DNA of 64,000 nucleotides from Candidatus Oxydemutatoraceae bacterium (lineage in GTDB: Bacteria > Pseudomonadota > Gammaproteobacteria > Poriferisulfidales > Oxydemutatoraceae): assembly GCA_965220085.1 (NCBI GenBank), contig CBDCOZ010000003.1:1088001-1152000 (forward strand). Reading direction: 5' to 3'. Within the stretch, counting starts at the first letter, position 1; each line of letters opens with the position of its first letter. The position numbers and the translations under genes were made by a program. The notes beneath the pieces are model-generated. The model saw only the letters and a program-made list of their open reading frames with translations. It made no database searches and had not been told where the DNA came from. Below are positions 9,472 through 52,923 of the stretch, one piece after another.

Positions 9472-12172
9472 TGTGCTGGAGGAGTTGATGATATCCGACG
9501 GCGATACGGATGCCGCGACGATATCGGAGGCGGCGACCGTCGGTTCCACGCTAACGGGCGTGGCCTTGACAGTCTCGGTGGAGGAAGGAGGAACGATTCC
9601 GGATTTAGCCTGGAGATTGTCGCGCAATCCGAACGAAGCGTTCGCAATAGCCTCGACCAATGGCGCGATTACGTTGGCACAAGCGGGCGTATTGGATTTT
9701 GAGACGGCTCCGAGCATAGACCTAGAGGTCGTAGCGAAACCGCTGAATATAAGGACCGAAGTGCCGGAGTCAGACCCATTCACAATCACGGTGACGGTGA
9801 CGAATGCCTTGGAGACGCTGACCGTCGCAGACAGCAATACCGACGACAATACAATCGCCGAGAACGCGGCGACGGGCACCGCGGTAGCGGGTATCACTTT
9901 GATCGCGAGCGAAGGCAACACTGCCGTGACCGGAGTGGACTGGAGTTTGGCGAGCACCCCAACCGGTCTGTTCGCGATAGATGGCGACGGCGTAATCCGC
10001 TTGGTTGCCGGCGGCAGTTTGGATTTTGAGACCTCGCCGACCGCCGCAGTGATGGTGCGAGCCGAAAAAGACGGAATCACTTCGCCGGCGGTTGAACTGA
10101 CGATAGCGGTTGAGGACGCGCCGGAGATCTTGACGATTAACAGGCCGGATACCTTGGCGATTATGGATAGCGACCCTGCCGCCAACACCATCGCCGAGAA
10201 CGCGGCGACCGGCACGACGGTGACCGGCATCACCCTGCAAGCCCGCGATGAAGCGGGCGCTACGGTGAGTGTTGCGATCTGGAGCGTAGTAAGTACCCCG
10301 ACCGATCTGTTTACGATAGATGCCGGCGGCGCTGTCAGGCTGACCGCCTCAAACACCTTGAATTACGAGATATCCACGAGCCACACGATAGAAGTGCGGG
10401 CTACGGCTGACGGCATACAGTCCGACGCATTGTCCCTGATTATCCTGGTGACCGACTTTGATGAGACGATTGTTCCGCCGACCGTAAGCGACACCGACCC
10501 CGCCTTAAACACGATCGCCGAGAACAGTGCGACGGGCACGGCGGTTTCGGGGTTGCGGTTGTCGGTAACAGAGATGGGCGCGGCGCCGTTTGGCGACGTG
10601 ATTTGGGGTTTGGATGATCCGACCGACACCTTCGGGATTGGCGCTGTCAGCGCCGAGATCGGTTTGCTCGCGAGCGGTGCGCTGGATTACGCAAGTACGC
10701 GAACCTATTCCGTAACAGTGACGGCAACGCTGGACGGGGCAGAATTGCCCTCGCTGACACTGACGATAAACGTTTTGAATGACATAGAGAATGTTCGGGT
10801 TCAAGATGACGACCCGTCGCCGAACCGGGTTCTTGAGAACGCGCCGATTGATACGCCGATATCGGGCCTGTCGCTGGCGGCGTATGAAATGCCCGCTTCC
10901 GGCGGGTCTGTCGAGTTGGAACAAGTGACATGGAGCTTGGCGGATAATGCCGATTTTGACCCGTACACGGGCGGCGTATTTGCGATCGATGCCGCCAGCG
11001 GCGAATTAACTTTGGCCGTTGCGGCGGATTACGAAACATCATCGCAACATTCTGTGTGGGCGGTCGCCGCCGTAACGCATCCCATAACGGGCGATGTGTT
11101 GCGCGGCGGCGAGCGCTTTGAAATACGGGTTGTCAACATACCGGAGACGTTGACGATTATGGATGGCGACCCCGCCGCGAACACCATCGCCGAGAATGCG
11201 GCGACCGACACGGCGGTGACCGGCATCGCCTTGCAAGCAAGCGAAGGCGATCTGCCTCTGACTGGCGGCATAGACTTTATATGGGGGCTGAGCGATGCCG
11301 CGGGCGGTCTGTTCGCGATTGACCCCGATAGCGGCGTAGTCACGGTGGCGGGCGCATTGAATTTTGAGACCGCGCCGACGCATACGATAATCGCACAGGC
11401 ATCAACCGGCACGGTCAGCGACACGATAGAACTGACCATCGACGTAACGGATGTTGATGATGTCCCGCCGCCGCAGCTTGTCTACACGGCGACGATAGCG
11501 GAGGACGCAACGACGGGCACGGCGGTAGCGGGTGTGACACTGACGGCACAGGTTGCCGACGGCACAGCCGCAGGCAGCGCCGTGAGATGGTACCTGCTCG
11601 ACTCAAACGACCCCGACTTGTTCGCAATAAGTCGCGCCACCGGCGTCATCACTTTGGTTGCGAGCGGCATGCTGGACTACGAGACCGCGCGCCGCCATCG
11701 CGTAATGGTAACCGCCGTAGCCGACGGTTACGAGTCCGTCACAGCGCCGCTGATGATACGCGTGACCAATGTGCTGGAGAGATTGACGATTACAAACAGC
11801 GGCAGCGGTGCGATAGAAATTGCCGAGAATGCGCCGACCGGCACGGTGGCGCTGGCGGCCACGGATCTGACGGTGCGCGATGAGGGCAATCGCGCGGTCA
11901 GCGGAGTAATCTGGAGCGTAGCGAGCGCCCCGACCGGTTTGTTTGCGATTGACCCCGCTAACGGCGAGGTGACGGTGGCGGGCGCGATGGATTACGAGGC
12001 ATCAACCGGCCACACGGTAATCGTGCGGGCGACAAAAGACGCTGTGGTATCCAATGACCTGAGTCTGACAATAGAGGTTTTGAACGACCCGACTGATGAC
12101 GGTGGCACCGGGCCGTCCGACCCGGTGCTCAGACTCCGCCTGCGCCTATTCCTGGAGGGCCCGTTACGATGA
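7826..12172 (+). CDS. C-terminal part of the giant cadherin-repeat protein, ending in LRLRLRLFLEGPLR
   Basis: Same 245-aa repeat unit as the upstream ORF; many cadherin motifs; no signal peptide; a 4-nt loss (gacattagacgaa to gacgacgaa) near 7800 explains the frame change. Confidence 0.85.
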   Translation: MPKLRIVADTATIAENATTGTEVDWTTKLDATTHSVIVTAVTAAGYQSATATLTINVTNALEKLTIANSGNGVIEIAEGAPTGTAVPGINLVATDENDEPVTDLIWRLTDSAGDLFAIASDTGVISVNRALIFEMSTSHSITAQASSQTVVSDALTLEINVLSAEACAALTPAQFFNGTACVDFAVCVEPATLDETENTCTVPKLRIVADTATIAENATTGTEVAGIDLTATDEGGNTVSSATWSLTDSNEPALFAIATDTGAITLIASDRLDHETTPTHSVIVTAEADGYQSATATLTINVTNALEKLTIANSGNGVIEIAEGAPTGTAVPGINLVATDENDEPVTDLIWRLTDSAGDLFAIASDTGVISVNRALIFEMSTSHSITAQASSQTVVSDALTLEINVLSAEACAALTPAQFFNGTACVDFAVCVEPATLDETENTCTVPKLRIVADTATIAENATTGTEVAGIDLTATDEGGNTVSSATWSLTDSNEPALFAIATDTGAITLIASDRLDHETTPTHSVTVTAAAAGYQSATATLTINVTNVLEELMISDGDTDAATISEAATVGSTLTGVALTVSVEEGGTIPDLAWRLSRNPNEAFAIASTNGAITLAQAGVLDFETAPSIDLEVVAKPLNIRTEVPESDPFTITVTVTNALETLTVADSNTDDNTIAENAATGTAVAGITLIASEGNTAVTGVDWSLASTPTGLFAIDGDGVIRLVAGGSLDFETSPTAAVMVRAEKDGITSPAVELTIAVEDAPEILTINRPDTLAIMDSDPAANTIAENAATGTTVTGITLQARDEAGATVSVAIWSVVSTPTDLFTIDAGGAVRLTASNTLNYEISTSHTIEVRATADGIQSDALSLIILVTDFDETIVPPTVSDTDPALNTIAENSATGTAVSGLRLSVTEMGAAPFGDVIWGLDDPTDTFGIGAVSAEIGLLASGALDYASTRTYSVTVTATLDGAELPSLTLTINVLNDIENVRVQDDDPSPNRVLENAPIDTPISGLSLAAYEMPASGGSVELEQVTWSLADNADFDPYTGGVFAIDAASGELTLAVAADYETSSQHSVWAVAAVTHPITGDVLRGGERFEIRVVNIPETLTIMDGDPAANTIAENAATDTAVTGIALQASEGDLPLTGGIDFIWGLSDAAGGLFAIDPDSGVVTVAGALNFETAPTHTIIAQASTGTVSDTIELTIDVTDVDDVPPPQLVYTATIAEDATTGTAVAGVTLTAQVADGTAAGSAVRWYLLDSNDPDLFAISRATGVITLVASGMLDYETARRHRVMVTAVADGYESVTAPLMIRVTNVLERLTITNSGSGAIEIAENAPTGTVALAATDLTVRDEGNRAVSGVIWSVASAPTGLFAIDPANGEVTVAGAMDYEASTGHTVIVRATKDAVVSNDLSLTIEVLNDPTDDGGTGPSDPVLRLRLRLFLEGPLR

Positions 12173-12340
12173 ACCTAAGCCGTTCCCTCCGAGCCGATGG
12201 TATGTTACGCCACAAACAATTGAGCATTGTTCGCGCACCCATTAAGAAGCCACGAGGGGAGAGCAATCACGTTATTCGCTTTCGTGCAAAGCCCCCGCGA
12301 AAGGAGTGGCAAAGGGGCGGACAGCGCGCCATCGCGCGAC
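12173..12340 (+). repeat. Conserved post-stop element (copy 1) with imperfect CACAAACAA-n7-TTGTTxG palindrome
   Basis: Aligns by eye with 22813-22965, 24133-24300 and 27740-27840. Confidence 0.75.
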
Positions 12341-12650: not shown

Positions 12651-12684
12651 TTGCCTCAGGCATCCGATATGTCATGGCATCAAA

Positions 12685-12875: not shown

Positions 12876-12924
12876 GCATCAAACACATTTCCCGACATTT
12901 TAGTATAATGGGAGACATTTTAAT

Positions 12925-15900
12925 TTGATCACAAAGATCTGCGGAGATCGCCAGTTGCATATGATAATTAAGTCCCGCTTTACAAGGCGTCTGCTTCCAT
13001 CCCTGCCATTCAAACGGTCGTTCACAACAACGTCACTTGCCTTAGCCTTTGTCGTTTTGCTATTCCATGCATCCGCTACGGCACAGGCTCCGATAGATTA
13101 TGACATCGACGACGACGGTCTGATAGGAATCACGACATTGGAACAGCTCAACGCGGTCCGGTTTGATCTTCTTGACAGTGATGGGATACCTACCTCCGAC
13201 GCGCCGGCATACAGGGAAGCATTCCCGAACGCCCTTGTCGGCATGGGTTGCCCGGACATTTGCGGCGGCTATGAATTGCTGAATGATTTGGACTTTGACG
13301 ATGCCGCCGACTACGCCTCGGGCACAGTGAACACGGACTGGACGAGCGGCAGCGGCTGGGAGCCGATTGGCAGATTTGGCATAACCCTTGCCAGTGTATT
13401 CAACGGCAACGGTCATACCATCTACAATCTGCATATCAACCGTTCCGCGGATTTTCAGGGTCTGTTTGGCACCGTCGGCAAGGATGCTCTGATAACAAAT
13501 GTCGGCGTCACCGGTTCGGTCAATGCGGGCGGGTATTCGCGTGTCGGCGGACTGGTCAGCGGCATTGATAAAAGCGCGATAGAAAGCAGTTATTCCGCGG
13601 TAGCGGTTGAGGGCGGAGCGTATTCCGGTTCTTTGCTTGGCTTTATGACGGATTCCGCGGCCGTTGCTTCGTCTGTGCGCCGGAGCTATGTCACCGGCTC
13701 CGTATACGCCGGCGCCGACTCTGGCGGTCTGCTCGGGCAGGACTTTCATAGTCAAGCGCAAGGCACGATTGAGCATACTTATGCGACCGGTTATGTGGAC
13801 TTGACCCGTACCGGCAGCCATGCAAGAGGCGGCGGCCTGATAGGCAATCTGGGCAATATGGCGCTCCGCTACAGCTATGCCACCGGTCTGATTCATCCGG
13901 GCAGTCAATCAGGCGGCGGTCTGGGCGGCGTCGTTGATGCTACCCATGTGGCTATCAATGTCTATGCTGCGGCTACCGCTGTCTATTGGGATAGCGAGAC
14001 TTCGGCCAAGACCAATGCGCTCGGAAGAGGCGCGCTCGCCGGCATTAGCGCCAAGACCACCGCCGAGTTGCAAGCGCCGACGACCTATACCGGCATCTAC
14101 GCCGACTGGGACGCAGCCGATGCCGCCGGTGATGCGACCGACTACTGGGACTTCGGCGCCGCGAACCAATACCCGGCGCTGAAGATTGACTTTAACAACG
14201 ATGACATCGCGAGCTGGCAAGAATTTGGCTATCAGTTGCGCGAAGGCCCGACAGTGACGACAACCGACACCTCCGTGCCGGGAACTTTGAGTTGGAGAGC
14301 GCCGGACACCTCGCACTGGGATGACCCGCCGCCGGTTACGTATAACATCTATCGCGACGGTATACTCTTGAGCCTTGCCGCCGATGCCATCACCGAGACC
14401 GTTGATGCGGACGGCGAGGTTACCTATTCCTATGCCGATGCGAGTCTGCTCCCCGACACGGTTTATACCTATCACATCGCCGCAGTCGTCAACGGCGGCG
14501 AGCCAAGTCGTTCCAGTCCGTTTGTCAGACGACCGGAGGCTAAGAACATGCCGGATGCATTGACGGTTGTCGATAGCAATGCCGCCGCCAATACCATCGC
14601 CGAGAACGCAACATCCGGCACGGCGGTGACTGGCATCGCCCTGCAAGCGAGAGAAGGCGGCCTGCCTCTGACCGATGGCGCGGGTCTCACATGGACGCTG
14701 ATCGACAATGCCGGCGGTCTGTTTGCGATTGCCACCGACACCGGTGTGGTCACGGCGGCGGGCGCATTGAATTACGAGATGGCTATGAGGCACACGATAA
14801 CGGCGCAGGCTTCAACCGGCGCTGTCGCCGGCGCCCTGACTCTGGCGATAACGGTTGAGAATGTGGCGGAGAGTTTGACGGTTGCGGATGACGATCCGAG
14901 CGCGAACCGCATCGCCGAGAATTCCATAGCCGGCACGGCGGTGACCGGCATCGCCCTGCAAGCGAGAGAAGGCGACCTGCTTCTGACCGGCGGCAAAGAC
15001 TTTCTCTGGATGTTGATCGACAATGCCAACGGTCTGTTTAAGATTGCCACCGACACCGGTGTGGTCACGGCGGCGGGCGCACTGAATTACGAGACGGCTA
15101 TGAGGCACACGATAACGGCGCAGGCTTCAACCGGCGCTGTCGTCAGCGCCCTGACTCTGGCGATAACGGTTGAGAATGTGGCGGAGAGTTTGACGGTTGC
15201 GGATGACGATCCGAGCGCGAACCGCATCGCCGAGAATTCCGCAGCCGGCACGGCGGTGACCGGCATCGCCCTGCAAGCGAGAGAAGGCGACCTGCTTCTG
15301 ACCGGCGGCAAAGACTTTCTCTGGATGTTGATCGACAATGCCGGCGGTCTGTTTAAGATTGCCACCGACACCGGTGTGGTCACGGCGGCGGGCGCATTGG
15401 ATTACGAGACGACTATGAGGCACACGATAACGGCGCAGGCTTCGACCGGCGCTGTCGTCAGCGCCCTGACTCTGGCGATAACGGTTGAGAATGCGCCGGA
15501 GAGTCTGATGATTGCGGATGACGATCCGAGCGCGAACCGCATCGCCGAGAATGCGGTGGCGAATATGCCGGTAACCGGAATCGCCTTGGAAGCCCGCGAC
15601 GAAGCGGGCGTTGCGGTGAGCGCCGTGACTTGGAGCGTAGCGAGCGCATCGAGCGATTTATTTGTGATTAACCCCGATAGCGGCGAGGTGACCGTGGCGG
15701 GCGCCTTGGATTACGAGACATCCATGAGTCACACGATAGAGGTGCGGGGCGAGGCGGACGGCATGCTGCCAGGCGCATTGTCGCTGACCATTACGGTGAC
15801 CGACTTTGACGAGACGATTATCCCGCCGACCGTGACCGACGCCGACCCCGCCGTCAACACCATCGCCGAGAACAGCACGGACACGGCAGTCGCCGGGATA

Positions 15901-17787
15901 ATGCTGGCGGTGATGCGAGGCGGCGCCCAGCTAAGCGACATCACATGGATACTGACCGACGATGCCGACGACCTGTTCGTGATTGCCACCGACACCGGCG
16001 TCATCAAAACCGCGACCGATCGCGCGCCGGATTACGAAGCGGCTGTGAGACATGACGTGACGGCGGTCGCCATCGCCTCCGACGGCAGCATCGTCGCACT
16101 CGATCTGACGATAGATGTGCGGAATGTGCCGGAGAGCCTGACGATTGCGGATAACGATCCGAGCGCGAACCGCATCGCCGAGAATTCCGCAGTCGGCGCG
16201 GCGGTGACCGGCATCGATCTGCAAGCGCGCGAAGATGAGCTGCTTCTGGCCGACGGCGCGGGTTTCATGTGGGAGCTGACCGATACCGCCGGCGGTCTGT
16301 TCGCGATTGCCACCGACACCGGTGTGGTCACGGTGGCGGGCGCATTGGATTACGAGAGTACGCCGACCCATAGCATAACCGCGCGGGCTGTGGCGGGCGC
16401 TGTGGTGTCTGATGCCTTGGCGCTGATGATTGCTGTCTTGGATGCGCCGGATGCATTGACGATTGCGGATAGCGATTCGAGCGCGAACCGCATCGCCGAG
16501 AATTCCGCAGTCGGCGCGGCGGTGACCGGCATCGCGCTGCAAGCGCGCGACGAGGACGACAATGAGGCAAGCGGGGTGACCTGGAGCGTAACGAGCGCCT
16601 CGGGCGATTTATTTGTGATTAACCCCGATAGCGGCGAGGTGACCGTGGCGGGCGCGCTGGATTACGAGAGTGCGCCGACCCATGACGTGACGGTGCGGGC
16701 TGCTGCGGGCACCGTGGTATCCGATGACTTGGCGCTGACGATACGCGTTTTGAATGTGCCGGAGACGCTGATAGTGGCAAACAGCGGCAGCGGCGCGGAG
16801 ATTGCCGAGGATGCGCGGGTCGGCACAGAGGTGCCGGGCATCGCCCTGACCGCAAGAGAAGGCGGAGTGCGTCTGGTCGGCGGCAAAGACTTCCTCTGGG
16901 ATCTGAGCTACAATGCCGGCGGCCTGTTTGCGATTGACCCCGATAGCGGCGCGGTCACGGTGGCAGGCGCATTGAATTTTGAGACCGCGCAGACGCATAC
17001 GATCATCGCGCGGGCATCAACCGGGACGGTCAGCGGCGCGATAGGGCTGACCATCGTCGTAACGGATGTTGATGATGTCCCGCCGCCGCAACAGGTTGCC
17101 TACACGGCGACGATAGCGGAGGACGCAACGACGGGCACGGCGGTAGCGGGCGTGACGCTGACGGCACAGGTTGCCGGCGGCGCTGCCGTAGGCAGCGCCG
17201 TGAGGTGGTATCTGGCCGACTCAAACAATCCCGACTTGTTCGCGATAAGCCGCGCTACCGGCATCATCACTTTGGCTGCGAGCGACAGGCTGGACTACGA
17301 GACCGCGCCCCGCCATCGCGTAATGATAACCGCCGCCGCCGACGGTTATGAGTCCGTCACAGAGCCCCTGATGATACGCGTGACCAATGTATTGGAGAGC
17401 TTGGCGATTGCCGATAGCGATGCCATGACCAATACGGTTGCGGAGAATGCGGCGGTCGGCACGACGGTGACCGGCATCACGCTGACGGTGCGCGACGAGG
17501 CCAATCGCGCGGTAAACGGGGTGATCTGGAGCGTAGCGAGCACATCGAGCGATTTATTTGTGATCAACCCCGATAGCGGCGAGGTGACCGTGGCGGGCGC
17601 GCTGGATTATGAGGCTTCCTCCAACCACTTGGTAATCGCGCGGGCCGCAAAAGACGCCGTGGTATCCAATGACCTGAAGCTGACAATAGAGGTTTTGAAC
17701 GACCCGAATGATGACGATGGCGCCGGGCCGTTTGAACCGGCGCTCAGACTCCGCCTGCGGCTGTTCCTGGAAGGCCCGTTGCGATAA
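12925..17787 (+). CDS. Secreted adhesin-like protein: signal peptide, one GLUG/FN3 module, about 10 cadherin-like repeats, C-terminal LRLRLRLFLEGPLR (start may be ATG 12961)
   Basis: 1620-aa ORF; signal-like SLALAFVVLLFHASATA-Q; DYDIDDDGLI module; repeated IAEN..FAI..LDYE. Confidence 0.9.
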   Translation: MITKICGDRQLHMIIKSRFTRRLLPSLPFKRSFTTTSLALAFVVLLFHASATAQAPIDYDIDDDGLIGITTLEQLNAVRFDLLDSDGIPTSDAPAYREAFPNALVGMGCPDICGGYELLNDLDFDDAADYASGTVNTDWTSGSGWEPIGRFGITLASVFNGNGHTIYNLHINRSADFQGLFGTVGKDALITNVGVTGSVNAGGYSRVGGLVSGIDKSAIESSYSAVAVEGGAYSGSLLGFMTDSAAVASSVRRSYVTGSVYAGADSGGLLGQDFHSQAQGTIEHTYATGYVDLTRTGSHARGGGLIGNLGNMALRYSYATGLIHPGSQSGGGLGGVVDATHVAINVYAAATAVYWDSETSAKTNALGRGALAGISAKTTAELQAPTTYTGIYADWDAADAAGDATDYWDFGAANQYPALKIDFNNDDIASWQEFGYQLREGPTVTTTDTSVPGTLSWRAPDTSHWDDPPPVTYNIYRDGILLSLAADAITETVDADGEVTYSYADASLLPDTVYTYHIAAVVNGGEPSRSSPFVRRPEAKNMPDALTVVDSNAAANTIAENATSGTAVTGIALQAREGGLPLTDGAGLTWTLIDNAGGLFAIATDTGVVTAAGALNYEMAMRHTITAQASTGAVAGALTLAITVENVAESLTVADDDPSANRIAENSIAGTAVTGIALQAREGDLLLTGGKDFLWMLIDNANGLFKIATDTGVVTAAGALNYETAMRHTITAQASTGAVVSALTLAITVENVAESLTVADDDPSANRIAENSAAGTAVTGIALQAREGDLLLTGGKDFLWMLIDNAGGLFKIATDTGVVTAAGALDYETTMRHTITAQASTGAVVSALTLAITVENAPESLMIADDDPSANRIAENAVANMPVTGIALEARDEAGVAVSAVTWSVASASSDLFVINPDSGEVTVAGALDYETSMSHTIEVRGEADGMLPGALSLTITVTDFDETIIPPTVTDADPAVNTIAENSTDTAVAGIMLAVMRGGAQLSDITWILTDDADDLFVIATDTGVIKTATDRAPDYEAAVRHDVTAVAIASDGSIVALDLTIDVRNVPESLTIADNDPSANRIAENSAVGAAVTGIDLQAREDELLLADGAGFMWELTDTAGGLFAIATDTGVVTVAGALDYESTPTHSITARAVAGAVVSDALALMIAVLDAPDALTIADSDSSANRIAENSAVGAAVTGIALQARDEDDNEASGVTWSVTSASGDLFVINPDSGEVTVAGALDYESAPTHDVTVRAAAGTVVSDDLALTIRVLNVPETLIVANSGSGAEIAEDARVGTEVPGIALTAREGGVRLVGGKDFLWDLSYNAGGLFAIDPDSGAVTVAGALNFETAQTHTIIARASTGTVSGAIGLTIVVTDVDDVPPPQQVAYTATIAEDATTGTAVAGVTLTAQVAGGAAVGSAVRWYLADSNNPDLFAISRATGIITLAASDRLDYETAPRHRVMITAAADGYESVTEPLMIRVTNVLESLAIADSDAMTNTVAENAAVGTTVTGITLTVRDEANRAVNGVIWSVASTSSDLFVINPDSGEVTVAGALDYEASSNHLVIARAAKDAVVSNDLKLTIEVLNDPNDDDGAGPFEPALRLRLRLFLEGPLR
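14590..15550 (+). repeat. 315-bp (105 aa) tandem cadherin-domain repeat, about 3 copies
   Basis: Near-identical units offset by 315 bp (e.g. 14772 vs 15087). Confidence 0.85.
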
Positions 17788-18264: not shown

Positions 18265-21200
18265 ATGGAACTTGAGCGACACATTGCAAATCGTATGCCT
18301 CGCGCAACCGCTTCTTTCCTTCGCCTGTTGCCGAAAGCGAGCGCGCTTGTTTTGGCGCTCGCGGTCTTGCTCTTCCGCGCATCCGCCATGGCACAGCAGG
18401 CGGACTATGACAGCGACAACAACAACCTGATAGACATCACGACAGCGGAGCAACTCAACGCGATGCGCTACGACCTTGACGGCGACGGGATGCCCGGCGC
18501 CGGCACGCAGACATACGCGGAGGCGTTTGTCAATGCCGTTGACGGCATGGGTTGCGCGTCCGATTGCATCGGTTATGAGTTGCTGAATGATCTGGACTTT
18601 GACGATGCTGCCGACTATGCCTCGGGCACAGTGAACGCGGACTGGACGAGCGGCGCGGGCTGGGCGCCGATTGGCAGCCTTGGCAAAAACTTTGCCGCCG
18701 TATTCAACGGCAACGGTCATGCCGTCCGCAACCTGCGTATCAGCCGCGCCGCGCACTTCCAGAGCCTGTTTGGCATCGTCGGCGAAGATGCTCTGATTAC
18801 AAATGTCGGCGTCACCGGATCGGTCAATGCGCGCGGTTTTTGGTTTGCGGGCGGACTGGTCGGCGGCGTTGATAAAAGCGCGATAGAAAACAGTTATTCC
18901 GCGGTGGCGGTCGAGGGCGGGGCGCAGTCCGGCTCTCTGCTCGGCTATGCCACGGATGCTTCGGCTGTGCGCCGCAGCTATGCCACCGGCGCCGTATACG
19001 CCGACTCCGAATCGGGCGGTCTGCTCGGGCGAGACTTTGACAGCCAAGCGCATGGCACGGTTGAGCACACTTATGCGACCGGCTATGTGGACGTGACCCG
19101 TGGCGGCGGCCTGATAGGCGTTCTGGGCAATGTGGCGCTCCGCTACGGCTATGCCACCGGTCTGATTCACCCGGGCAACCAATCGAGCGGCGGTCTGGGC
19201 GGCAGCGTTGAGGCGGGCGCCGTGGCTGCCGCTGTCTATTGGGATAGCGAGACCTCGGCCAAGACCAATGCGTTCGGGGAAGGCGCGCTCGCCGGCGTGA
19301 GCGGCAAGACCGCCGCCGAATTGCAAGCGCCGACGTCCTATGCCGGCATCTATGCCGACTGGAACGCGACCGATGCCGACGGCAATGCGACCGACTACTG
19401 GGACTTCGGCAACGCGAACCAATACCCGGCGCTAAAGATTGACTTTGACAACGACGGCACGGCGAGTTGGCAGGAGTTCGGCTATCAGTTGCGCGAAGGC
19501 CCGCGCCTGCGCGAAGGCCTGCAGCGCGTGACACGAGACAGGATTGCCTTTGACCTGAGATGGAGCGCGCCGGACACCTCGCACTGGGACAATCCGCCGC
19601 AGATCGACTACCGCATCTACCGTGACGGCGCGGCCTTGGACATCGGAGCCGATGACATCGCCGAGACCCGCGCTGCGAACGGCGAGATTGTCTATTCCTA
19701 TGCCGATGCGGGTCTGCTCGCAGACACTGTTTATGCCTATCACATCGCCGCGGTCGTGGGCGGCGGCGAGCCGAGCCGCAGCGCGACCGCGTTTGAAGTT
19801 GATTACGACAGAGACGACGACGGTCTGATAGAGATTACGACACTGGAACAACTCAGCGCAATCCGCTGGGACTTGGACGGCGACGGGAAGCCCGACGAAA
19901 GTGCGCGGGAATACGCGCAAGCCTTCCCCGGCATCACGGACAGCGCGGGTTGCCCGGACACCTGCAACGGCTACGAATTGCGCCGCGATCTGGACTTTGA
20001 CGATGCCGCCAGCTACGCTTCGGGATCGGTGAACACGGCATGGACGAGCGGCGTCGGTTGGTTGCCGATTGGCACCGTTTTCACGGAGAGCTTCGCGGCG
20101 ACTTTCAACGGCAACGGTCATGCCATTTACAACCTGTATGTCAATAGCGCCGAACGTTACCGAAGCTTGTTCGGCGTCGTTAACGGCGTGATATCAAACA
20201 TCGGCGTCACCGGTTCGGTCTCATCCACAGGCTCCTTTATCGGCGGCTTGGCGGGTGTGCTGGCCGGTTTTGGCATGATAGAAAAATCCTACTCGGCGGT
20301 ATCGGTGGAAGCCGACGCATCGGGCGGTTCCTTGGCGGGTTGGGTTTCCGCTAGCACGGTGCGACTGAGTTATGCGAGCGGTGTTGTCAACGCCTCTGCG
20401 AGCGCCGGCGGCTTGCTGGGCCATATTTTCCTCACATCTGCCCACCGCGCAGAAATAGAGCATGTCTATGCGACCGGTTTTGTCAATGCAACGGGCGACG
20501 ACAATTCTGTCGGCGGTTTGCTTGGCTTTCCGGGGCAGGCGCGCCTGAAATACGCTTATGCCACCGCCTTGGTTGCCCCCTCGGGCGGCGGTTTGAGCGG
20601 CGACGATACCGATGATTTTTCGGCGACAGCGGCATATTGGGATATCGAGGCATCGGACCGGGCTACCGCAACTCCGTCGGCGGCCATAGATGGCGTTGAG
20701 GGCAAGGCCACCGCCAAACTACAGGCGCCGACGGCCTATGCCGGCATCTACGCCGACTGGGACGAGGGCAACGCCGCCGATTACTGGGACTTCGGCGCCG
20801 CGAACCAATACCCGGCGTTGAATATTGACTTTGACAACGACGGCATGGCGAGTTGGCAAGAATTCGGCTATCAGTTACGCGAAGGCCCGGCAGTGGCGAC
20901 AACCGACACATCCGCGGGAGTTTTGAGTTGGAGCGCGCCGGATACCTCGCACTGGCCGCGCGACCCGCCGTCTGTCGGCTACGCCATCTATCGCAACGGT
21001 GCGCCCTTGCGCCTTGCCGCCGATGCCATCGCCAAGACCGCCGATGCCAACGGCGATGTTGTCTACTCCTATGTTGACCCGGATGCATCCGCCGACAGCG
21101 CTTATCGCTACCACATTGCCGCAACCGTCAACGGCGGCGAGGCGAGTCGTTCCGGCGCGTCTGATGCGCCGGAGAGCCTGACGATTGCGGATAGCAATGA

Positions 21201-22812: not shown

Positions 22813-22965
22813 GCCGGAGCCGTCCTTGAGCCGACAATCTCAGAAGCCACAAACAATTGAGTGTTGTTTGTGTGCCGCCTCCCTCCGTCAGGGGAGGGTG
22901 ATTACGTTGTCTGCGTTCGCGCAAAAGCCCCCCGCAAAGGAAGCGGCAAAGGGACAGACGGCATG
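22813..22965 (+). repeat. Conserved post-stop element with perfect CACAAACAA-ttgagtg-TTGTTTGTG hairpin
   Basis: 9-bp inverted repeat at about 22848-22872; flanks align with the copies after 12172, 24132 and 27739. Confidence 0.75.
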
Positions 22966-23118
22966 GGGGAGCAATGGGCCGGGAGGGGTGCGCGATGTAT
23001 TGCTAGCACTCATATTTTTAGCGGATTCTGACGTTAGGAGGTAGTGTCATATATAATCAGAGCTTTGCAAGGAGACAAACAAGGATTCTAAGTCGCCGAC
23101 ACATTGACATATAGATTT

Positions 23119-24132
23119 ATGCGGATAGAGCCCGAACAATACATTAACAAGTTGCGTGTTTCGCGTAACTCTCCCTTCCCTCGCCCGTTACCAAAAACAA
23201 GCGCGCTTGTTTTGGCGCTCGTGGTTTTGCTCTTCTCCGTATCCGCTCTTGCGAAACAACCCGCGCAACTATCGATCGACTTTGACGACAACGACGCGAA
23301 TACGGCAGTCGGTACGCCGGTCACGGCGACGGACGCATCGGATTTTGAAACCGCACAGGCGCATACGACAACGGCGCCAAATAGAGCGGTATCAGATCCG
23401 CGGTTCCCAATCACCGTCGCAACGGCCCTGCCACAGCTACAGATTACCTACATAGCGGTGGTAGCGGAGTCGGCAACGACGGGCACGACGATAGCGGAGG
23501 TAACGCTGGCACAGGTTGCCGATAGCGATGCCGCAAGCAGCGCGACATGGAGCCTGAGCGACCCGAACGAACCCGACTTGTTCGCAATAAGCAGCGCCAG
23601 CGGCGTAATCACGCTGATTGCGGGCGGCACGCTGGATTACGAGACATTAACGCAACACATAGTAATGGTGCGAGCCGAAGCCGACGGTGAGGAACTCATC
23701 ACAGTGCCGCTGACGATACGCGTGACCAATGTGCTGGAGGCATTGATGATTGACGATAGCGATGCCACGACCAATACGGTTGCGGAGAATGCGGCGGCCG
23801 GCACGACGGTGACCGGCATCGCGCTGACGGTGCGCGATGAGGGCGATCGCGCGGTCGGCGGAGTGACCTGGAACGTAGCGGGCGCCCCGGCCGACCTGTT
23901 CACGGTAGATGCCGACGGCGCTATCAGGCTGGCTACTTCGGGCGCCTTGGATTACGAGGCATCAACCGCCCACGCGGTAATCGTGCGGGCGACAAAAGAC
24001 GCCGTGGTATCCAATGACCTGGGACTGACGATAGAGGTTACGAACGACCCGACCGACGACGACGGCACAGAGCCGTCCGAACCGGCGCTCAGAATCCGCC
24101 TGCGCCTCTTCCTGGAAGGCCCGTTGCGATAA
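23119..24132 (+). CDS. Short secreted cadherin-like protein (two domains plus a collapsed fragment), C-terminal LRIRLRLFLEGPLR
   Basis: Leader homologous to that of the 18265 gene (SALVLALVVLLFSVSALA); C-terminal ~230 aa closely similar to the 18265 gene end. Confidence 0.8.
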   Translation: MRIEPEQYINKLRVSRNSPFPRPLPKTSALVLALVVLLFSVSALAKQPAQLSIDFDDNDANTAVGTPVTATDASDFETAQAHTTTAPNRAVSDPRFPITVATALPQLQITYIAVVAESATTGTTIAEVTLAQVADSDAASSATWSLSDPNEPDLFAISSASGVITLIAGGTLDYETLTQHIVMVRAEADGEELITVPLTIRVTNVLEALMIDDSDATTNTVAENAAAGTTVTGIALTVRDEGDRAVGGVTWNVAGAPADLFTVDADGAIRLATSGALDYEASTAHAVIVRATKDAVVSNDLGLTIEVTNDPTDDDGTEPSEPALRIRLRLFLEGPLR

Positions 24133-24384
24133 GCTTAAATTGTTCCCCGAGCCGACAATTCAAGGAGCCGCAAACAATTGAGCATTGTTTGTGTGTCGCC
24201 TCGCTCCCGCGAGGGGGAGAGCGCTCACATCGTCCGCTTTCGCGCAAAGCTCCCGCGAAGGGAGTGGCAAAGGCAGACAGCGCGCCATCGCACGACTGAG
24301 CGACCACACCACGGACCGAAGTTTCAAAAACCCATGACACACACAACATTTGCCTCAGGTGTCCGATATGTTATGGCATCAAAC
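24133..24384 (+). repeat. Conserved post-stop element; internally deleted sister of 12173-12684, without the MITE
   Basis: Shares the 5' part and the 3' part (cacacaaYatttgcctcagg..tccgatatgtYatggcatcaaa) with 12173-12684, lacks the transposase-like middle, and has a single GCATCAAA. Confidence 0.8.
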
Positions 24385-44232: not shown

Positions 44233-44252
44233 ACCCGCCTATCGCCGAGTAA

Positions 44253-45539
44253 CTAGCCGAACATATCGGCTGTCACATTGGCAAACCAACTGTATGCATA
44301 CTGCACTTCCCGCTTCAGCGCATCAGGCGACGCATCGCTCGGGGTCAGTCCGCCGGCCACTTTCTTAATCGCGCTTTTATCGTCCGCCAGACGATAAACC
44401 GCCGCCACCGAAACGCCGTAGTCCGTGCCCGCTATGCTATAGCAGGTATTGACATAGGAGGGCGTAGGCGCGGGCTTCTCTTGCAACGAAGCGACGACCG
44501 CCGCCGCGCACACTTTTGCTTCGGAATTCGCGGCATAGCCCGATTTCGGCAAACCGGTCGCAATGCTGGCATCGCCGACGATGTAAGTCCCCGAGTGCTT
44601 GACCGATTCAAAGGTGCCAAGGTGAACCGGGCACCAACCGGAATCGTCGGCACAGCCGGAAACCTGAGCGATGTGTCCGGCCTTCTGCGGCGGGATGACA
44701 TTGATTACATCGCCTTCAAAGTCGTCAAGCTCGGTTGAGACAGTCATTTTTGCGGGATTGACCGCAACCACGCCGCCGCCCGTGTCGGAACCCGGCAACC
44801 ACTCGATCATATCGCCGTAGAGTTCTTTCCAAGCTTTCGTGAACAAGCCTTGCTTTGAAAATTTGTCTTTTGCGTCAATCACCAAAATTTTTGATTTCGG
44901 TTTATGCGCTTTGAAGTAATGGGCAATCTGACACGCTCTCTCGTAAGGCCCCGGCGGGCAACGGAAAGGGTTAGCAGGCACGGTAATGATTACGGTACCG
45001 CCGTCTTTCATGCCTTCCAGTTGTCGCCGAAGGAGCGCGGTCTGTTCGCCCGCCTTGTACGCATGCGGCATCCTTTCGGGCGCGGCTTCGTTATAGCCTT
45101 CGATCGCATTCCACTTGAAGTCAATGCCGGGCGACAGAACCAGCCGGTCAAACGAAAATTTCCCGTCGCCGGCTGTGACCATTTTCTTGCGATGATCAAC
45201 CGCTATCGCTTCGGCATGAACGACATTAATCCCGTGGCCGCTCAGCCCTTCGTATGAAAAGCGCAACGATTCGATGCTGCGGTCGCCGCCAATCACCTCA
45301 TTGCTCATAAAGCAAGTGTGGTAATGCTCATTGCGTTCAATCAAGACGACATCGATCGTCCGATCCATCATCTTGATGTACTTGGCGGCGATAGCGCCGC
45401 CGGCGCCGCCGCCGACGACCACTGCTTTCTTCGGCGCGCCAAAGGCAATCTGCGGAAAGCCGACACCGGCAACGGCGCCGATAGCCGCAACGCTGCCCGA
45501 AGCTTTAATAAATGTGCGTCTGTTTAATTTTGTCACCAT
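44253..45539 (-). CDS. fccB: Flavocytochrome c sulfide dehydrogenase, flavoprotein subunit
   Basis: Tat signal [47 protein letters not shown]. Confidence 0.93.
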
Positions 45540-45550
45540 CTTCTTCCCCC

Positions 45551-46243
45551 TCACTTAACGCTTGCGTAATAATTTAACAAATCCAGAATGCCATCCTTGC
45601 CTTCGCTCTCCTGCAACTCCCTGAGCGCCTTTTTCATCTTCTTCGGCATATCGCGATTGCCTTCCATGTAGTCATGCAGGGTATAGCGCAGATAGGGCAT
45701 CCACTGTCCCGCCAGTATGCCAACATCGTCTTCGGGCGACAGGCCGCCGTCCTCGTGGCATTTATCGCAGTATTCTTCGTGCAGGCTCTCGCCGGAGGCA
45801 ACCCGCGACTTGTCAAAGCCTTGCATCACCGGCACATGCTCGCTGTCGGAGAACACAGCCGCCATGACTTTGATCTCTTCAAGGGTATAGCCTTTTGCAA
45901 TCCGCCCCATAATCGTACTGTAGCGGCTCAAGGCCTCCGCATCTTCGTACTTCTTATCTTTGCCGAGCTCCTCCATCGCCTTTGCCAACCCCTCGGGGTC
46001 ATCGTGATACTTATAGGCAAGCATCGCCCCGACGAAGTAGTTCTCGGTCAGGCCGGCCAGCGACGGAATGGCGGGCCCCTGGCTCACGCCGCCAGGGCCG
46101 TGACAAGCAACGCAAGTATTAGTCAGCATGTCGGCGGTAGCCATTTTGCCATCGTCCATTTTGCCCCCGTGTTTATCCGCATAAGCGGATGTGAAACAGA
46201 GCATTCCTGTAAACAGGATTAGTAGAAAAACAAACCGTTTCAT
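45551..46243 (-). CDS. fccA: Diheme cytochrome c subunit of flavocytochrome c
   Basis: Signal peptide, CVACH and [16 protein letters not shown]; directly upstream of fccB. Confidence 0.88.
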
Positions 46244-48811: not shown

Positions 48812-50672
48812 CTATCGCAGCGGGCCTTCCAGAAAGAGGCGCAGCCGCAAGCGCAGGTTGGGTATGGCAACGCAAGCGGGCCAGGTTCCGAGGTATCCGT
48901 CGCCGCAGATGCATTCGGTTGCGCCGCCAGTGTTGTGGTCGGGCGGGTATCCGCCGGGGGCGTTTCCGTCAAGGTCGCAGTTTGCGACAAAGTCGTCGGT
49001 GTTTCCGCTGACAACAACATTGGGATGGTCATTGGCGTTTGGAAAGTTCGGAGGGTCGCCGAAAAGTTCGGCGCAAGCAGTCTTGTCGGAAGTTCCGTGA
49101 ATCAGACAATCCGTGTCGGTGGTGCGGATTGCTTGGTCGGCGCCATACAGGAGATATGGAATGCTGCAAAATGCGTCTGGGGAGTTCAAGAGAACAAGCC
49201 AGTTCGCGTTTTGGCAGTCCATAACCGTCTGCGTGGCGGCGGAAGGAAGACATATGGAAGAATCGCTCGCAGTGACAAGGGTTTGTCCCGCCGGACATCC
49301 GCAAGGAGTTGGTTTCGGTATCGTATGTTGTTCCTGTCGGGCATCCGTAAGAGTTGGTTTCGGAGGAGTAAGTCTGTATGCCGGGGCATTCGCAGGAGTC
49401 GGTTCCGGTGTCGTATGTTGTTCCCGTCGGGCATCCGCAAGAGTTGGTTTCGGAGGAGTAGGTCTGTATGCCGGGGCATTCGCATGAGTCGGTTTCGGTA
49501 TCATATGTTGTTCTGGCGGGACATCCGCAAGAGTTGGTTTCGGAGGAGTAGGTCTGTATGCCGGGGCATTCGCAGGAGTGGGTTTCGGGGTCGTATGTCG
49601 CGTCTGTCGGGACATCCGCATGAGTGGGTTTCGGGGTCGTATGTCGCGTCTGTCGGGCATTCGCAGTCAGCGGGGTTGGCACCGATGACATTGCATTCGC
49701 AGTCGGTCGGGGAGAATTTCATGTCGTGGGTGGCGGCCCATGTGACAAAGGCGGCGGTCGGCTCCGCCCAACCGAGGCATTGGCATTCGCGGTGATCGGA
49801 GTGGTACCGGGCGAGCGAATTTTCGTCGCCGCATCGGCGCCCGTTGCATCTCTGATATTGTCCGCTTGTCCCATCGTTTCTTGAAAAGCTATAGCGGGCG
49901 CAGATGCCGGTGTCATCGCTTTGTATTCCGCAGAAGCTCAGCGTTCCGTCGCCGATGCTGATGAAGCGATCCTCGGTGCTAATGCGGTGGCAGGTGTCGT
50001 AGGCGTAAAGGTGGTCGGGCGTCACGCAGGTGACCCGAGTCGGGCTGTGGGTGCCGGTCCAGACGCCGGTTCGTTGCGCGAAGACGCTGTATCCGTGCGC
50101 GCGTCCGGCGGGGCAGGCGGCGCGCCGCTATTGTTGTGGGTGCGGTCGTAGGAGTATCGGACGCCCTCGTGCTTGTAGCCGCGGGAGTAAATAGGGTCGG
50201 TGATGGCCTGGGGGCCCGAGGGGATGACATCGCCGACCGGGTTGTTGACGGAGTTGACGGCGATGATATGCCATCGGTAGCAATTTCCCCAAGATTGGCC
50301 GGATGAGGAGGGTGTTCGCACGGCCGTGTAAAACTTCTCCGGGTCGGTAATGAGTTCTCCGCTGCCGCTGGTGATTCGCCATTGTCCCGGGGTGAGTTCG
50401 TCGCACCGGGTGGGGTATGCGTTAGGGGGCGTGACAGGCACCTCGTCTTTGCTGAGAGACCGGTGTTGGGAGCGGTAGATGTAGTATCCGATGATGGGCG
50501 ACCCCCCGTCGGAGACGGGCGGGCGCCATCGGATGGTGAATGCCTCTTTGGCGAAGTCGGCCTCAATGACGCGGGTGATGCGGGGCTTTCCGGGCGCGGT
50601 TTGGGCTTGCGCGGCGGAGACGGCGGCGATTGCCGCAAAGAGGATGACGGAGAGTGCGAGGGCAGTCGTCAT
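48812..50672 (-). pseudogene. Secreted FN3 + Cys-rich repeat protein with C-terminal LRLRLRLFLEGPLR, split by about three frameshifts (real decay or assembly error)
   Basis: Signal MTTALALSVILFAAIAAVSAAQAQ; FN3 WRPPVSDGGSPIIGYYI; coding sense passes through ORFs 50022..50672, 49501..50025, 49029..49691 and 48812..49660, with shifts near 50120, 49610 and 49305. Confidence 0.75.
49296..49665 (-). repeat. 45/90-bp tandem repeat encoding 15-aa CxCP...Y...ETxS units
   Basis: catccgYaagagttggttt recurs at about 49341, 49431 and 49521; translation CGCPTGTTYDTGTDSCECPGIQTYSSETNS. Confidence 0.85.
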
Positions 50673-51006: not shown

Positions 51007-51666
51007 CTATCGCAACGGGCCTTCCAGAAAGAGACGCAGCCGCAAGCGCGGGCCCGGTGTGCAGCTCGGCCAGTCGCCGAAGTGCGAGCCCGGATTGCAT
51101 ACGCATTCGGTTGCGCCGTTCCGGTTGATGTCTGGATAGCCGCCGGGGACATTTCCGTCTCGGTCGCAATTTGCCACAAAGAACTTGCTGGTACCGACAA
51201 AGGGTCGGACGGCGGGGTGGTCCGCCGCTTTCGGAAAAACCGGCGGGTCGCCGTACATATCCGTACAGGCAATACCGCTCCCGCTTCCCAAAACAATGTT
51301 GCAGTCATTAGCGGTAATGCTAGCTGTTCTTGTCCCAAGGTTGGAGGGAATCAAACAAATCATGTTTCCCAGAAAGTACTGCGCCCCTGTCGCTTCGCGT
51401 CCGTCCCATCCCGCGTCTTCGCAGGCGTCCAGAATCGAGACGAAGGCGTTGTCAAAGCATCTGGTGTTCATTTCCTCAAGGAAATGGGGGGAAGTGACTC
51501 GGGTTTGCCCTTGTGGGCAGATAGTTTGGCAAATGCCGCGAACATTTTCCTGCCCTGCCGGACACATCGTTTGCGCTTGTGCGCTGTTTGCGACGAACGC
51601 GAAAGTTATTGCCGCGCAAATCCCGCAAATTTTAAGGGGGTCAGTATTAATAAGTTGTCGTTTCAT
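51007..51666 (-). CDS. Secreted Cys-rich protein with C-terminal RLRLRLFLEGPLR
   Basis: RBS GGAG before ATG 51666; signal ..AAITFAFVANSAQAQ; about 11 Cys in the mature part; homologous to the C-terminal domain of the 48812 gene. Confidence 0.85.
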   Translation of the reverse strand: MKRQLINTDPLKICGICAAITFAFVANSAQAQTMCPAGQENVRGICQTICPQGQTRVTSPHFLEEMNTRCFDNAFVSILDACEDAGWDGREATGAQYFLGNMICLIPSNLGTRTASITANDCNIVLGSGSGIACTDMYGDPPVFPKAADHPAVRPFVGTSKFFVANCDRDGNVPGGYPDINRNGATECVCNPGSHFGDWPSCTPGPRLRLRLFLEGPLR

Positions 51667-51807
51667 CGTATTTCTCCTAATGGTTTTTGATTCGTGAACG
51701 CGGTTGCGCAATGAGCGCTTCCGCCCCAAAGACCTCTACAAGTGTCTTCACATCCTGTCTCATCCTCGCGCGCCTCATAACACTCTCCTTCTCCGTAGTT
51801 ACTCGCG

Positions 51808-52923
51808 CTATCGCAACGGGCCTTCCAGAAAGAGGCGTAGCCGCAAGCGCAGACTTGAGTCGGACCTGCCTTCCACAGGAAGGCCGATGCTGCATCGCTC
51901 CTCGGATGCCGGCATGGAGTGCTGGTCCTTGAAGGAGGCGCATACGCGAAGGTATTTTCCGGCATGGGTGGCACGAGGCGTGAAGCCGGAGGTGAGGCCG
52001 CCCGTTGTTGTGGTACCCGCTATATCGCTGTAAGCGCCGACTACAGAGGTGCCGCTAGAGGGGGCATCGGCCTCTTGCCACTTCCAGCCCAGAGTGCTTG
52101 TATCAATGCCATTTCCATCAGCCACGCCATAGATGGAAGCCGTCAGCGGCGCATTGGCGGCATATGAAACGCCCGTACTGCCCGTCACCGTGGGCGCACC
52201 CTGGGCGGGAATCTGCGAGGTTTCCCCTCTGACCAGATTGATGGTAACGGTGCCATGCGAACTATAGGTGTTGATATCGTCGAAACTGTAGCCGCGATAA
52301 GCGAAACTAGCATAGTCAGGGGTGACAGAAATGGCATCAGGGGGAGGCACATAGTACACACTTCCCACATCATTGAGGGAAAAGTCGCCAGGGGTGAATC
52401 GAGTGTTGATGCGGGAACGGTTCTGTTTCTTCTGACCAATATGCCACGGTCAGGCAAAGTAACCAATTCCACGACGAAATCACTTCTGGTGGCGGTGCTA
52501 CCATTCGCATCCTTGAAGGCAAAGTCGTTTAACTGAAAGACGTAGGCACCGACCCCAATTCCGACATCAATGCTGGTATTCTGGGCGGCGGGGATGCCGC
52601 TTGTCTGGGCCGAGGCGCAGGTTGCGCCCAATGCCAGGGGCAGTAGCAACAGGCAACGCGTGGCGGTTCTGGACATAGCCCCGTCGGTCGGTACTACCGC
52701 TCGTGCGGGCGCAAAAAGCGCCACAAACCGTCGCCGCAACGAAAGCCCGAGCCCGGGTGCCCCCGGGGCGTGCGACCGCTTTGCGGATGGCGGGTTGCGA
52801 TATGCGGGTGATAAAAAGCGGGTGAAGAGGCGATACGGCGAAACGCCGATAAACCCTTTACTTACAAGGCTAGGGGGGGGGGGGGGGGGGGGGGGTAACA
52901 GTATTAAAAATATGTCGAGTCAT
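51808..52923 (-). pseudogene. Secreted beta-rich (Ig/cadherin-like) protein with C-terminal LRLRLRLFLEGPLR; interrupted at a poly-C tract and by a second frameshift near 52410
   Basis: GAGGAG RBS + ATG 52923; signal-like LLLLPLALGATCASAQ; YVFQLNDFAFKD..LVTLPDRG then GAPTVTG..LTASIYGVADGNG..WKWQ..GKYLRVCASFKD across ORFs 52185..52739 and 51808..52368. Confidence 0.7.
52873..52895 (+). repeat. G23 homopolymer (C23 on the coding strand), candidate phase-variation tract
   Basis: Directly visible; begins in codon 10 after ATG 52923. Confidence 0.85.

Follow-up and report, generated by a model that had tools for sequence, protein, structure and literature searches.

What is the purpose of a dozen residues with which gene after gene in one bacterium comes to an end? 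The question is raised by a stretch of 64,000 nucleotides (henceforth the window; G000:C3:1088001-1152000, from the genome G000 of 2.49 Mb, 3 contigs and 55.6% G+C), in which a six-frame search located the peptide ...RLRLRLFLEGPLR (henceforth the tag) immediately 5' of a stop codon at seven sites. Four of these stop codons lie on the + strand (12170-12172, 17785-17787, 22810-22812 and 24130-24132) and three on the - strand (48812-48814, 51007-51009 and 51808-51810). A sequence-only reading of this DNA had claimed the same tagged gene ends, and all seven (7/7) are where it had placed them; its remark that no housekeeping gene within the window bears the tag also holds. The copies in the window vary at synonymous sites, and TGA, TAA and TAG are all used. 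An eighth copy, VRLFLEGPLR followed by a stop codon (27707-27739, +), had been overlooked, and overall the earlier observation was partly confirmed, with the corrections given below.

Inspection of the whole genome revealed 223 occurrences of LEG[PA]LR directly before a stop codon: 185 end open reading frames (ORFs) of at least 150 codons, in the form LRLR[LIV]FLEGPLR-stop of 12-14 residues, and 38 are short remnants. The 185 tagged ORFs have a median length of 445 codons (the largest have 15,193, 14,215, 13,255 and 9,777) and a total of 162,241 codons, or 19.5% of the genome. The one-residue variants FLKGPLR and FLEDPLR add only two more long ORFs. A degenerate DNA pattern for RLRxFLEGPLR-stop has 211 matches in the genome, versus none for the same pattern reversed, and the recurrence of the tag is far in excess of chance.

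The 185 copies comprise 159 distinct 36-nt cores, with a mean pairwise difference of 6.2 nt over 36 nt, and encode merely 8 distinct 12-residue peptides. Over 17,020 pairs, the codon differences outside position -8 number 83,944 synonymous versus 1,090 nonsynonymous (98.7% synonymous). Positions -12 to -7 (L, R, L, R, [LIV], F), which lay outside the search pattern, hardly vary or do not vary at all, with 2-8 codons in use at each. Codon positions 1 and 2 carry about 2.0 bits of information and position 3 carries 0.6-1.5 bits; the figure drops to about 0.2 bits for the 30 nt preceding the tag and to about zero from 7 nt past the stop codon. Because conservation is bounded by the tag and relaxed at the wobble positions, it is the peptide, rather than a DNA repeat, that is shown to be under strong purifying selection. 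The genome-wide synonymous excess, the 3-nt periodicity and the sharp borders at the tag thus bear out what had been proposed from the window copies. Readthrough of the stop codon by an alternative genetic code was considered and dropped, as all three stop codons are used by the 185 ORFs (113 TAG, 48 TAA and 24 TGA) and the downstream sequence is unconserved.

The position of the tag is nearly as constant as its sequence. Among the matches to RxRxFxEG in G000, 212 of 217 end exactly three residues 5' of a stop codon, and four are internal to ORFs of 100 codons or more. Of these, one is a stop-less remnant that runs into a ferredoxin-like gene. The other three share an N-terminal tag module, in which a common signal peptide is followed by the tag, a GGS linker and the protein body: a trypsin-fold protease (G000:C1:36355-38001) and two PPC-repeat proteins (G000:C1:23865-25292 and C3:1171407-1173515), all of them without a C-terminal anchor. 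The notion of a strictly C-terminal tag therefore stands for nearly all copies, which sit at the extreme C-terminus, and fails for these three proteins tagged near the N-terminus. Drawn as a beta-strand, the tag has one face made of Leu at -14, -12, -10, -8, -6 and -2, and another made of R, R, R, F, E, P and R. An AlphaFold2 model of a fibronectin type III (FN3) domain with its tag folds the domain and leaves the tag unstructured (predicted local distance difference test [pLDDT] score of 55-58), weak evidence that would be compatible with a free tail. In the model of the N-terminally tagged protease, the mean pLDDT is 68.6, with block means in the tag region of 46-52 (residues 31-50) and 32 (residues 51-60), a confidence too low to bear on docking.

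We wished to determine how far the tag extends beyond G000. Its exact form is absent from 40 relatives and, with the genome itself excluded, from 185,579 species genomes. The idea that the tag is unique to this genus, based on such exact-form searches, was rejected after diverged forms were found in relatives, where large ORFs of other genera of the family end in VRVRVRVFLEGPLQ or LYLRVLLEGPLKE, and further forms are LRIRSRVFLEGPLQ, IRLRIKLFLEGPLQ, IKLRIKVFLESSMQ, LRFRIRVFLEGALQ, LRLRIRVFLEGALE, VRIRVFLEGAVIP, KLRLRVFLGGMIR, VRLKVLLGGATR, VRLKVYLGGAVR and LRVRVFLQGALQ (example endings: VFLEGPLQ, VFLEGALE, VFLGGMVR and VLLGGATR). A profile built from 18 tails matches in 17 of the 19 genomes of the family, with at least 150 matches in G000, 64 in G009, 38 in G007 and 26 in G016, and has no match in the family genomes G008 and G001. 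The tag is thus not special to G000, contrary to the earlier reading. The same profile finds nothing in 34 genomes from three sister families of the order, and of 400 scored genomes of the class the two that match both belong to the family, leaving 0 of 398 others. The tag is thereby shown to be restricted to one gammaproteobacterial family.

When a narrower profile was compared with 1.84 billion representative proteins, 34 hits reached E<=0.001. Of these, 33 are C-terminal (32 at the last residue, one a single residue short of it), and the remaining one is false, an internal repeat. Together with the 212 of 217 matches in G000, this proteome-wide search supports the C-terminal placement, as do the tails in five further genomes, where 20 of the 21 examined end 0-2 residues past the profile. 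Across the family the tag reads hydrophobic, R/K, hydrophobic, R/K, hydrophobic, F/Y/L, L, E/G/Q, G/S, any residue, hydrophobic, and then one or two residues to the C-terminus. Within any one genome its ends are alike, and from genome to genome they vary (EGPLR, EGPLQ, EGALE, EGAVIP, GGATR, GGMVR and QGALQ), which fits a protein reader that co-evolves with the tag. The names that NCBI gives to relatives' tagged proteins are, among those examined, no more than 'hypothetical', 'fibronectin type III' or 'cadherin-like', and one such protein is labelled 'Candidatus Oxydemutatoraceae bacterium'. The closest named relatives are metagenome-assembled genomes labelled 'Candidatus Porisulfidus' and 'Candidatus Oxydemutator' (Mfd 54% identity), and Oxydemutator thiolithooxidans is listed as a symbiont of the sponge Stylissa (PMC11685487). 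As a separate observation, G009 carries tandem arrays (C1:284000-375000 and 2440000-2584000) of about 30 genes of roughly 3,300-3,600 codons, and those examined have a trypsin-fold protease domain first and the tag KLRLR[VA]FLGGM[VI]R last.

Which proteins bear the tag? Most tagged ORFs of G000 begin with Sec-type signal peptides ending in ...CAQAQA. By a crude heuristic, whose permissive rule inflates the untagged rate, Sec-type N-termini are found on 116 of 168 tagged versus 502 of 1545 untagged ORFs, and in many of the tagged ORFs that it misses, a signal peptide can be seen beyond a poly-C tract that is out of frame. The enrichment upholds the earlier claim that the tag belongs to exported proteins; a genome-wide exception, ORF P0030, consists of a cytoplasmic-looking N-terminus joined to a tagged 3' fragment. 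The cargo includes cadherin, He_PIG, Calx-beta and Big_9 domains, subtilases (S8), S1 proteases, PPC domains and Cys-rich proteins without a Pfam match. The sequence-only reading had called the tagged bodies unrelated; they are indeed diverse, but 181 of the 185 are linked by shared modules into one single-linkage BLAST cluster.

On these grounds the tag is very probably a sorting, anchoring or processing signal of some kind. C-terminal sorting signals are a known kind of element, and this form of one is new and apparently undescribed, as had been supposed. No sorting-signal model of NCBIfam (five tagged proteins at E<=1) or Pfam (seven proteins) matches it, the strings FLEGPLR and LFLEGPL are absent from the literature searched, with LEGPLR occurring in an unrelated context only, and the accessible parts of the literature on Porisulfidus and Oxydemutator, sponge symbionts, phase variation and sorting signals mention no such tag. 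Examination likewise sustained the view that the tag is unlike LPXTG, PEP-CTERM, GlyGly-CTERM, autotransporter, RTX and type IX secretion system (T9SS) C-terminal domain (CTD) signals, since the defining features of each are missing. Taken together, the earlier interpretation found partial support.

GlyGly-CTERM with its protease rhombosortase comes close. Like the tag, it marks the C-terminus of proteins that Sec exports in Gammaproteobacteria possessing a type II secretion system (T2SS), and a trypsin-fold serine protease is among the carriers of either signal. PMC6219818 describes GlyGly-CTERM as a Gly/Ser-rich motif followed by a hydrophobic transmembrane segment and C-terminal basic residues. 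The tag has no Gly/Ser motif, hydrophobic helix or basic tail, although G000 does encode a rhombosortase (TIGR03902, 93.7 bits against a cut-off of 84; G000:C3:475041-475553), which presumably serves a few GlyGly-like proteins and not the tag. At 12-14 residues the tag is too short to span a membrane, so that an intramembrane protease cannot be its reader. PEP-CTERM (with exosortase) and LPXTG (with sortase) are likewise short C-terminal motifs on many exported proteins, lineage-restricted and expanded in some genomes; both need a transmembrane helix, a basic tail and a dedicated transpeptidase, whereas the tag has neither helix nor tail and lacks both motifs, and G000 (99% complete) has no match to exosortase (PF09721) or sortase (PF04203). 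The T9SS CTD, too, marks a large and diverse set of secreted and surface proteins, adhesins and proteases among them, and T9SS handles hundreds of cargo proteins per genome, a scale comparable to that of the tag. It is a folded beta-sandwich of about 70-100 residues found in Bacteroidota, whereas conservation of the tag covers 12-14 residues only and no CTD model of the Por_Secre_tail type matches the tagged proteins scanned (five with NCBIfam, seven with Pfam).

Against type V secretion, no barrel domain was found in 27 Pfam-scanned tagged proteins, and G000 has a single Omp85-family protein. Type I substrates of the RTX kind have no N-terminal Sec signal, usually carry RTX repeats and keep an uncleaved C-terminal signal of about 50 residues, whereas most tagged proteins have Sec signal peptides and no RTX repeat family is among their Pfam matches. 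The beta-signal read by BamA is the last strand of a barrel and ends in an aromatic residue; the last residue of the tag is R, Q, E or P in all tails examined, and the cargo consists of soluble repeat proteins and enzymes. In chaperone-usher and type V pili, the donor-strand peptide has about five alternating hydrophobic residues in a terminal strand that could fill the groove of a partner. The tag shows such an alternation (Leu at -14, -12, -10, -8 and -6), a likeness in pattern only: the cargo does not resemble pilin, neither an acceptor domain nor an usher or chaperone was identified, and the second face (R-R-R-F-E) is invariant as well. A further parallel is the peroxisomal targeting signal PTS1, a tripeptide from a different domain of life and a different compartment that is read by the tetratricopeptide repeat (TPR) domain of PEX5. 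It resembles the tag as a very short signal at a fixed distance from a free C-terminus, and here TPR proteins adjoin the T2SS operon (see below).

A major question is what the tag does for its cargo, and one protease family offers a clue. The trypsin-fold protease is present in 11 of the 19 family genomes with its His, Asp and Ser invariant; the model of the N-terminally tagged member matches solved trypsin folds (Foldseek E down to 8e-9; 1arb with a TM score of 0.59), whereas phmmer found no match for it among PDB sequences, so that the fold was recognised by fold search alone. After a conserved ...DDSARPxY, members of the family show four kinds of ending: a Gly run, hydrophobic helix and basic tail (G005, G012, G017 and a G000 paralogue at C3:1160881); the tag directly (G004); a long extension closing in the tag (G007, G009, G011 and G015); or a bare C-terminus with the tag module at the N-terminus (G000, C1:36355). 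The PPC-repeat proteins show a similar swap, in that one (C3:1167957-1169076) has a Gly-helix-basic tail and its N-terminally tagged relatives are 40-50% identical to it over the repeats. Such tails appear to fit the published description of GlyGly-CTERM, a label that is our reading of the tails; a non-exhaustive count in G000 stands at two tails, seen in passing, versus 185 tags. In Vibrio cholerae, GlyGly-CTERM holds the T2SS-secreted serine protease VesB on the cell surface, and VesB is released without it, according to PMC6219818. The swap of the tag with a GlyGly-CTERM-like anchor within one protease family points to an anchoring role, and by this analogy the tag most likely does the same surface-retention job by other means. 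Alternation with a known anchor is the kind of evidence by which earlier sorting signals were defined.

A candidate route across the outer membrane is encoded in G000. A complete T2SS cluster lies at C3:452100-464000, in which GspC, D, A, B, E, F, G and K were recognised, and GspC is present in all 19 family genomes versus none of the 34 sister-family genomes. The earlier reading had proposed a beta-strand that an outer-membrane translocon would read or that would dock by strand complementation. Apart from its single Omp85-family protein, G000 has one TolC-like protein; no candidate for a dedicated Omp85-type translocon was found there, and a search of G000 for ShlB/TpsB gave no match, with the controls equally silent, so that this search weighs neither way. 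The neighbourhoods of tagged genes in G011, G012 and G017 hold no common candidate machinery.

Our preferred reading, with a rough probability of 0.45, is that the tag would be a surface anchor acting after Sec export and T2SS passage. Cargo would be exported by Sec, cross the outer membrane via the family's type II secretion system and be retained on the cell surface by the tag, whose amphipathic strand (an all-Leu face and an Arg-rich face) and short EGPL-x cap would dock non-covalently onto a co-evolving receptor protein. The scarcity of other routes in G000 (one Omp85 protein, no sortase, no exosortase) favours this proposal, and both strand faces and the E-G-P-L cap are invariant while the ends are genome-specific, a combination that speaks for a protein reader over generic binding to lipid or lipopolysaccharide.

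Several points weigh against such a surface anchor. The co-occurrence of T2SS and tag is one and the same family-level split and so represents a single evolutionary event, and G008 and G001 have the T2SS without a match to the tag. No reader or receptor protein for the tag was found. The uniformity of tag ends within a genome could also be explained by recent expansion of gene families, and NCBIfam at E<=1 returned no family, the GlyGly-CTERM model included, on four relatives' proteases. T2SS secretion of proteins of up to 15,193 codons would be unusual, giant adhesins being usually exported by type I secretion. Lastly, the fixed distance to the C-terminus fits recognition of a free carboxylate, for targeting or processing, at least as well as passive docking.

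This last point leads to a rival in which the free C-terminus would be read by a component of the secretion system, for example the GspC PDZ domain or some other periplasmic protein that recognises C-termini, and the cargo would thereby be recruited for translocation across the outer membrane. Besides the fixed distance, the idea draws on a PDZ-like region at the C-terminal end of GspC in G000 (TIGR01713 over residues 3-258 of 259, below its cut-off), which has weak DegP/MamE PDZ matches (residues 227-282) and is divergent between genera (20-29% identity). Complex prediction with this region and tag tails scored 0.00, a 'no answer' that weighs neither way. Canonical PDZ ligands end in a hydrophobic residue, whereas the tag ends in R, Q, E or P, and the three N-terminal tags are followed by GGS and so present no free carboxylate. 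In the protease family, moreover, the tag swaps with an anchor and not with a known export signal, and in the Vibrio work PDZ-dependent information resides in the Ig fold of VesB and not in a terminal peptide. We regard export recognition as unlikely.

A second proposal, on which we would put equally long odds, is that a dedicated enzyme recognises the tag and then either cleaves it or links the protein by a covalent bond to a glycan or glycolipid, in the manner of a sortase. Directly upstream of gspC in G000 (C3:448564-452066; locus L088:4564-8066) lies a gene for a Wzy_C (O-antigen-ligase-like) protein with TPRs, and divergent from it in the same locus is one for a membrane-anchored TPR protein with a retropepsin-like protease domain. 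The first is full-length in 19 of 19 family genomes, with three weak partial matches in 34 sister-family genomes, and the second is present in 19 of 19 versus 0 of 34; the two genes adjoin gspC in five of the six genera (g1, g2, g4, g5 and g6). This placement and the restriction of strong matches to the family make both proteins leads as candidate readers of the tag. TPR domains do read C-terminal peptides (PEX5 with PTS1, Hop with EEVD), and an enzyme recognition site is typically as strictly invariant as these 12 residues. On the other hand, both genes are also present in the tag-negative G008 and G001, the tag is devoid of Ser, Thr, Lys and Cys, the residues that would most readily serve for attachment, and, unlike other sortase-type signals, it has no transmembrane helix to hold the substrate at the membrane. 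Pressed to its most specific form, and by analogy, the proposal would have the TPR-bearing enzymes beside the T2SS operon (Wzy_C-TPR and retropepsin-like) read a 12-residue strand tag with a free C-terminus and fix the protein to the surface, possibly covalently to a glycolipid, as T9SS cargo is to anionic lipopolysaccharide (A-LPS), yielding a phase-variable surface proteome to which a sponge-associated symbiont devotes a fifth of its genome; this, too, is a speculative and rather improbable picture.

Less probable still is that the Arg-rich amphipathic strand binds sulfated host glycans or host membranes as a common adhesive end. The sponge association of the nearest named relatives and the abundance of adhesin-type repeats in the cargo speak for this idea, and alternating basic and hydrophobic residues may suit the binding of polyanions, but polyanion binding leaves the invariance of F-L-E-G-P-L and the genome-specific last residues unexplained, proteases and PPC proteins are tagged too, and the bacterial surface is where the swap with a cell-surface anchor would place the tag. 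Scarcely tenable, and already disfavoured, is the possibility that what is conserved at the 3' end is mainly the DNA, which would give surface-protein genes a stretch of homology for recombining or exchanging cassettes, the peptide being incidental, for although G000 has 38 short remnants (22 of them in tandem near another tag), relatives have comparable ones and gene 5' ends are conserved too, the 6.2-nt differences among the copies are almost solely synonymous, conservation is absent upstream and stops 6 nt past the stop codon, genera keep the peptide pattern with different DNA, and a recombination handle needs no reading frame.

The remnants were also inspected in their own right. Each of the 22 follows another tag at a distance of under 1 kb, and they form tandem units of 54-168 nt. 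Remnant arrays, often just downstream of an intact tagged gene, are seen at G000:C3:513722-514190, 908936-909440 and 648658-648946, and the comparable 3' remnants of relatives are in G009 and G012. Recombination or slippage does occur near the tag, yet it leaves the conservation of the tag unexplained.

Tagged genes are also set apart at their 5' ends. A C/G homopolymer of at least 7 nt is present there in 82 of 168 tagged versus 35 of 1545 untagged ORFs, and most such tracts are 11-28 nt long, lie right behind the start codon and are read as poly-Pro. Among homopolymers of at least 8 nt, G000 has 100 C/G runs versus 48 A/T runs, and no A/T run exceeds 9 nt. Many tagged genes are out of frame at the poly-C tract, as is one in the window (52873-52895). 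In Campylobacter and Neisseria, it is well established that G/C homopolymer tracts bring about phase variation (PMC8355987 and PMC3786947). By analogy, the 5' poly-C tracts on about half of the tagged genes suggest a large surface repertoire that would be phase-variable by slipped-strand mispairing.

LPXTG, PEP-CTERM, GlyGly-CTERM and the T9SS CTD each led to dedicated envelope machinery. The tag has no helix, basic tail or folded domain, yet it stands on 185 proteins that make up 19.5% of a genome and is kept family-wide, and identification of its reader would reveal either a new way of retaining type II substrates on the surface or a new sorting enzyme. As it stands, the tag is a one-line rule that lists the surface repertoire of uncultured symbionts, from giant adhesins to about 80 poly-C genes that may switch, a repertoire relevant to how symbionts interact with their host or hide from it. 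A hidden Markov model of the tag would improve the annotation of relatives' proteins.

Returning to the window, the first copy on the + strand (LRLRLRLFLEGPLR and TGA, 12128-12172) ends ORF 7826-12172, which has cadherin repeats and overlaps, in another frame, the end of the 5'-open ORF 3-7865, of which it may be a frameshifted continuation. The next (TAA, 17743-17787) ends ORF 12925-17787, encoding 1620 residues with cadherin and DUF6923 domains behind a Sec-type signal peptide that ends in ...FHASATAQA. It is followed by LKLRLRLFLEGPLR and TAA (22768-22812), at the end of ORF 18265-22812 (1515 residues, cadherin and GLUG, Sec-type signal peptide), and by LRIRLRLFLEGPLR and TAA (24088-24132), at the end of ORF 23104-24132 (342 residues, two cadherin domains, Sec-type signal peptide). 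The overlooked copy at 27707-27739 ends in TAA and is gene-less, with 23 open codons upstream; it is counted among the 38 short remnants of the genome.

On the - strand, the copy at 48812-48856 (TAG) ends ORF 48812-49660, which encodes a Cys-rich protein of 282 residues with no Pfam match and no in-frame signal peptide. Within 48812-50672, the upstream part of this gene is open in another frame, and the gene is probably frameshifted. PRLRLRLFLEGPLR and TAG (51007-51048) end ORF 51007-51729, again Cys-rich and without a Pfam match, with the signal peptide MKRQLINTDPLKICGICAAITFAFVANSAQA. The third copy (TAG, 51808-51852) ends ORF 51808-52368, whose start (MTRHIFNTV), poly-C tract and signal peptide lie upstream, to about position 52923, in other frames; the tract is a 23-nt homopolymer (G on the + strand, C on the coding strand; 52873-52895) directly after the start codon, a putative slipped-strand phase switch that puts the gene out of frame. 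Six visible 5' ends had been credited with Sec signal peptides. This is true in frame for four of the six (12925, 18265, 23104 and 51007-51729); 48812-49660 has none in frame, and that of 51808-52368 lies in other frames behind the 23-nt poly-C tract. Sequencing depth spikes at the tag (51700-53100), as expected of multi-copy sequence.

A hairpin element, gccacaaacaattgag...tgtttgtgtg, follows several copies in the window, at about 12205-12235, 22860-22890, 24180-24210 and 27785-27815 on the + strand and also downstream of - strand tags. It was rejected as a component of the tag, as it follows only seven of the 223 tags, whereas its core occurs 64 times in the genome; the element stands apart as a small repeat or terminator. 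An Rfam scan of the window gave no match.

Other genes of the window touch on different subjects. A sulfide:quinone-reductase-like flavoprotein is encoded beside a dihaem PdsA-like cytochrome (44253-46243, -), both weak sub-threshold matches, and the pair would fit a sulfur-oxidising lifestyle. An ABC/AAA-type ATPase (24456-25802) has weak retron-effector and PtuA matches. A defence-type cluster (53413-59806) comprises McrB-like (53413-55167) and McrC-like (55218-56249) genes, both below curated cut-offs, and a gene for a Dsr1-like sirtuin protein (56261-59806) that scores 409 bits, below the cut-off of 1400.

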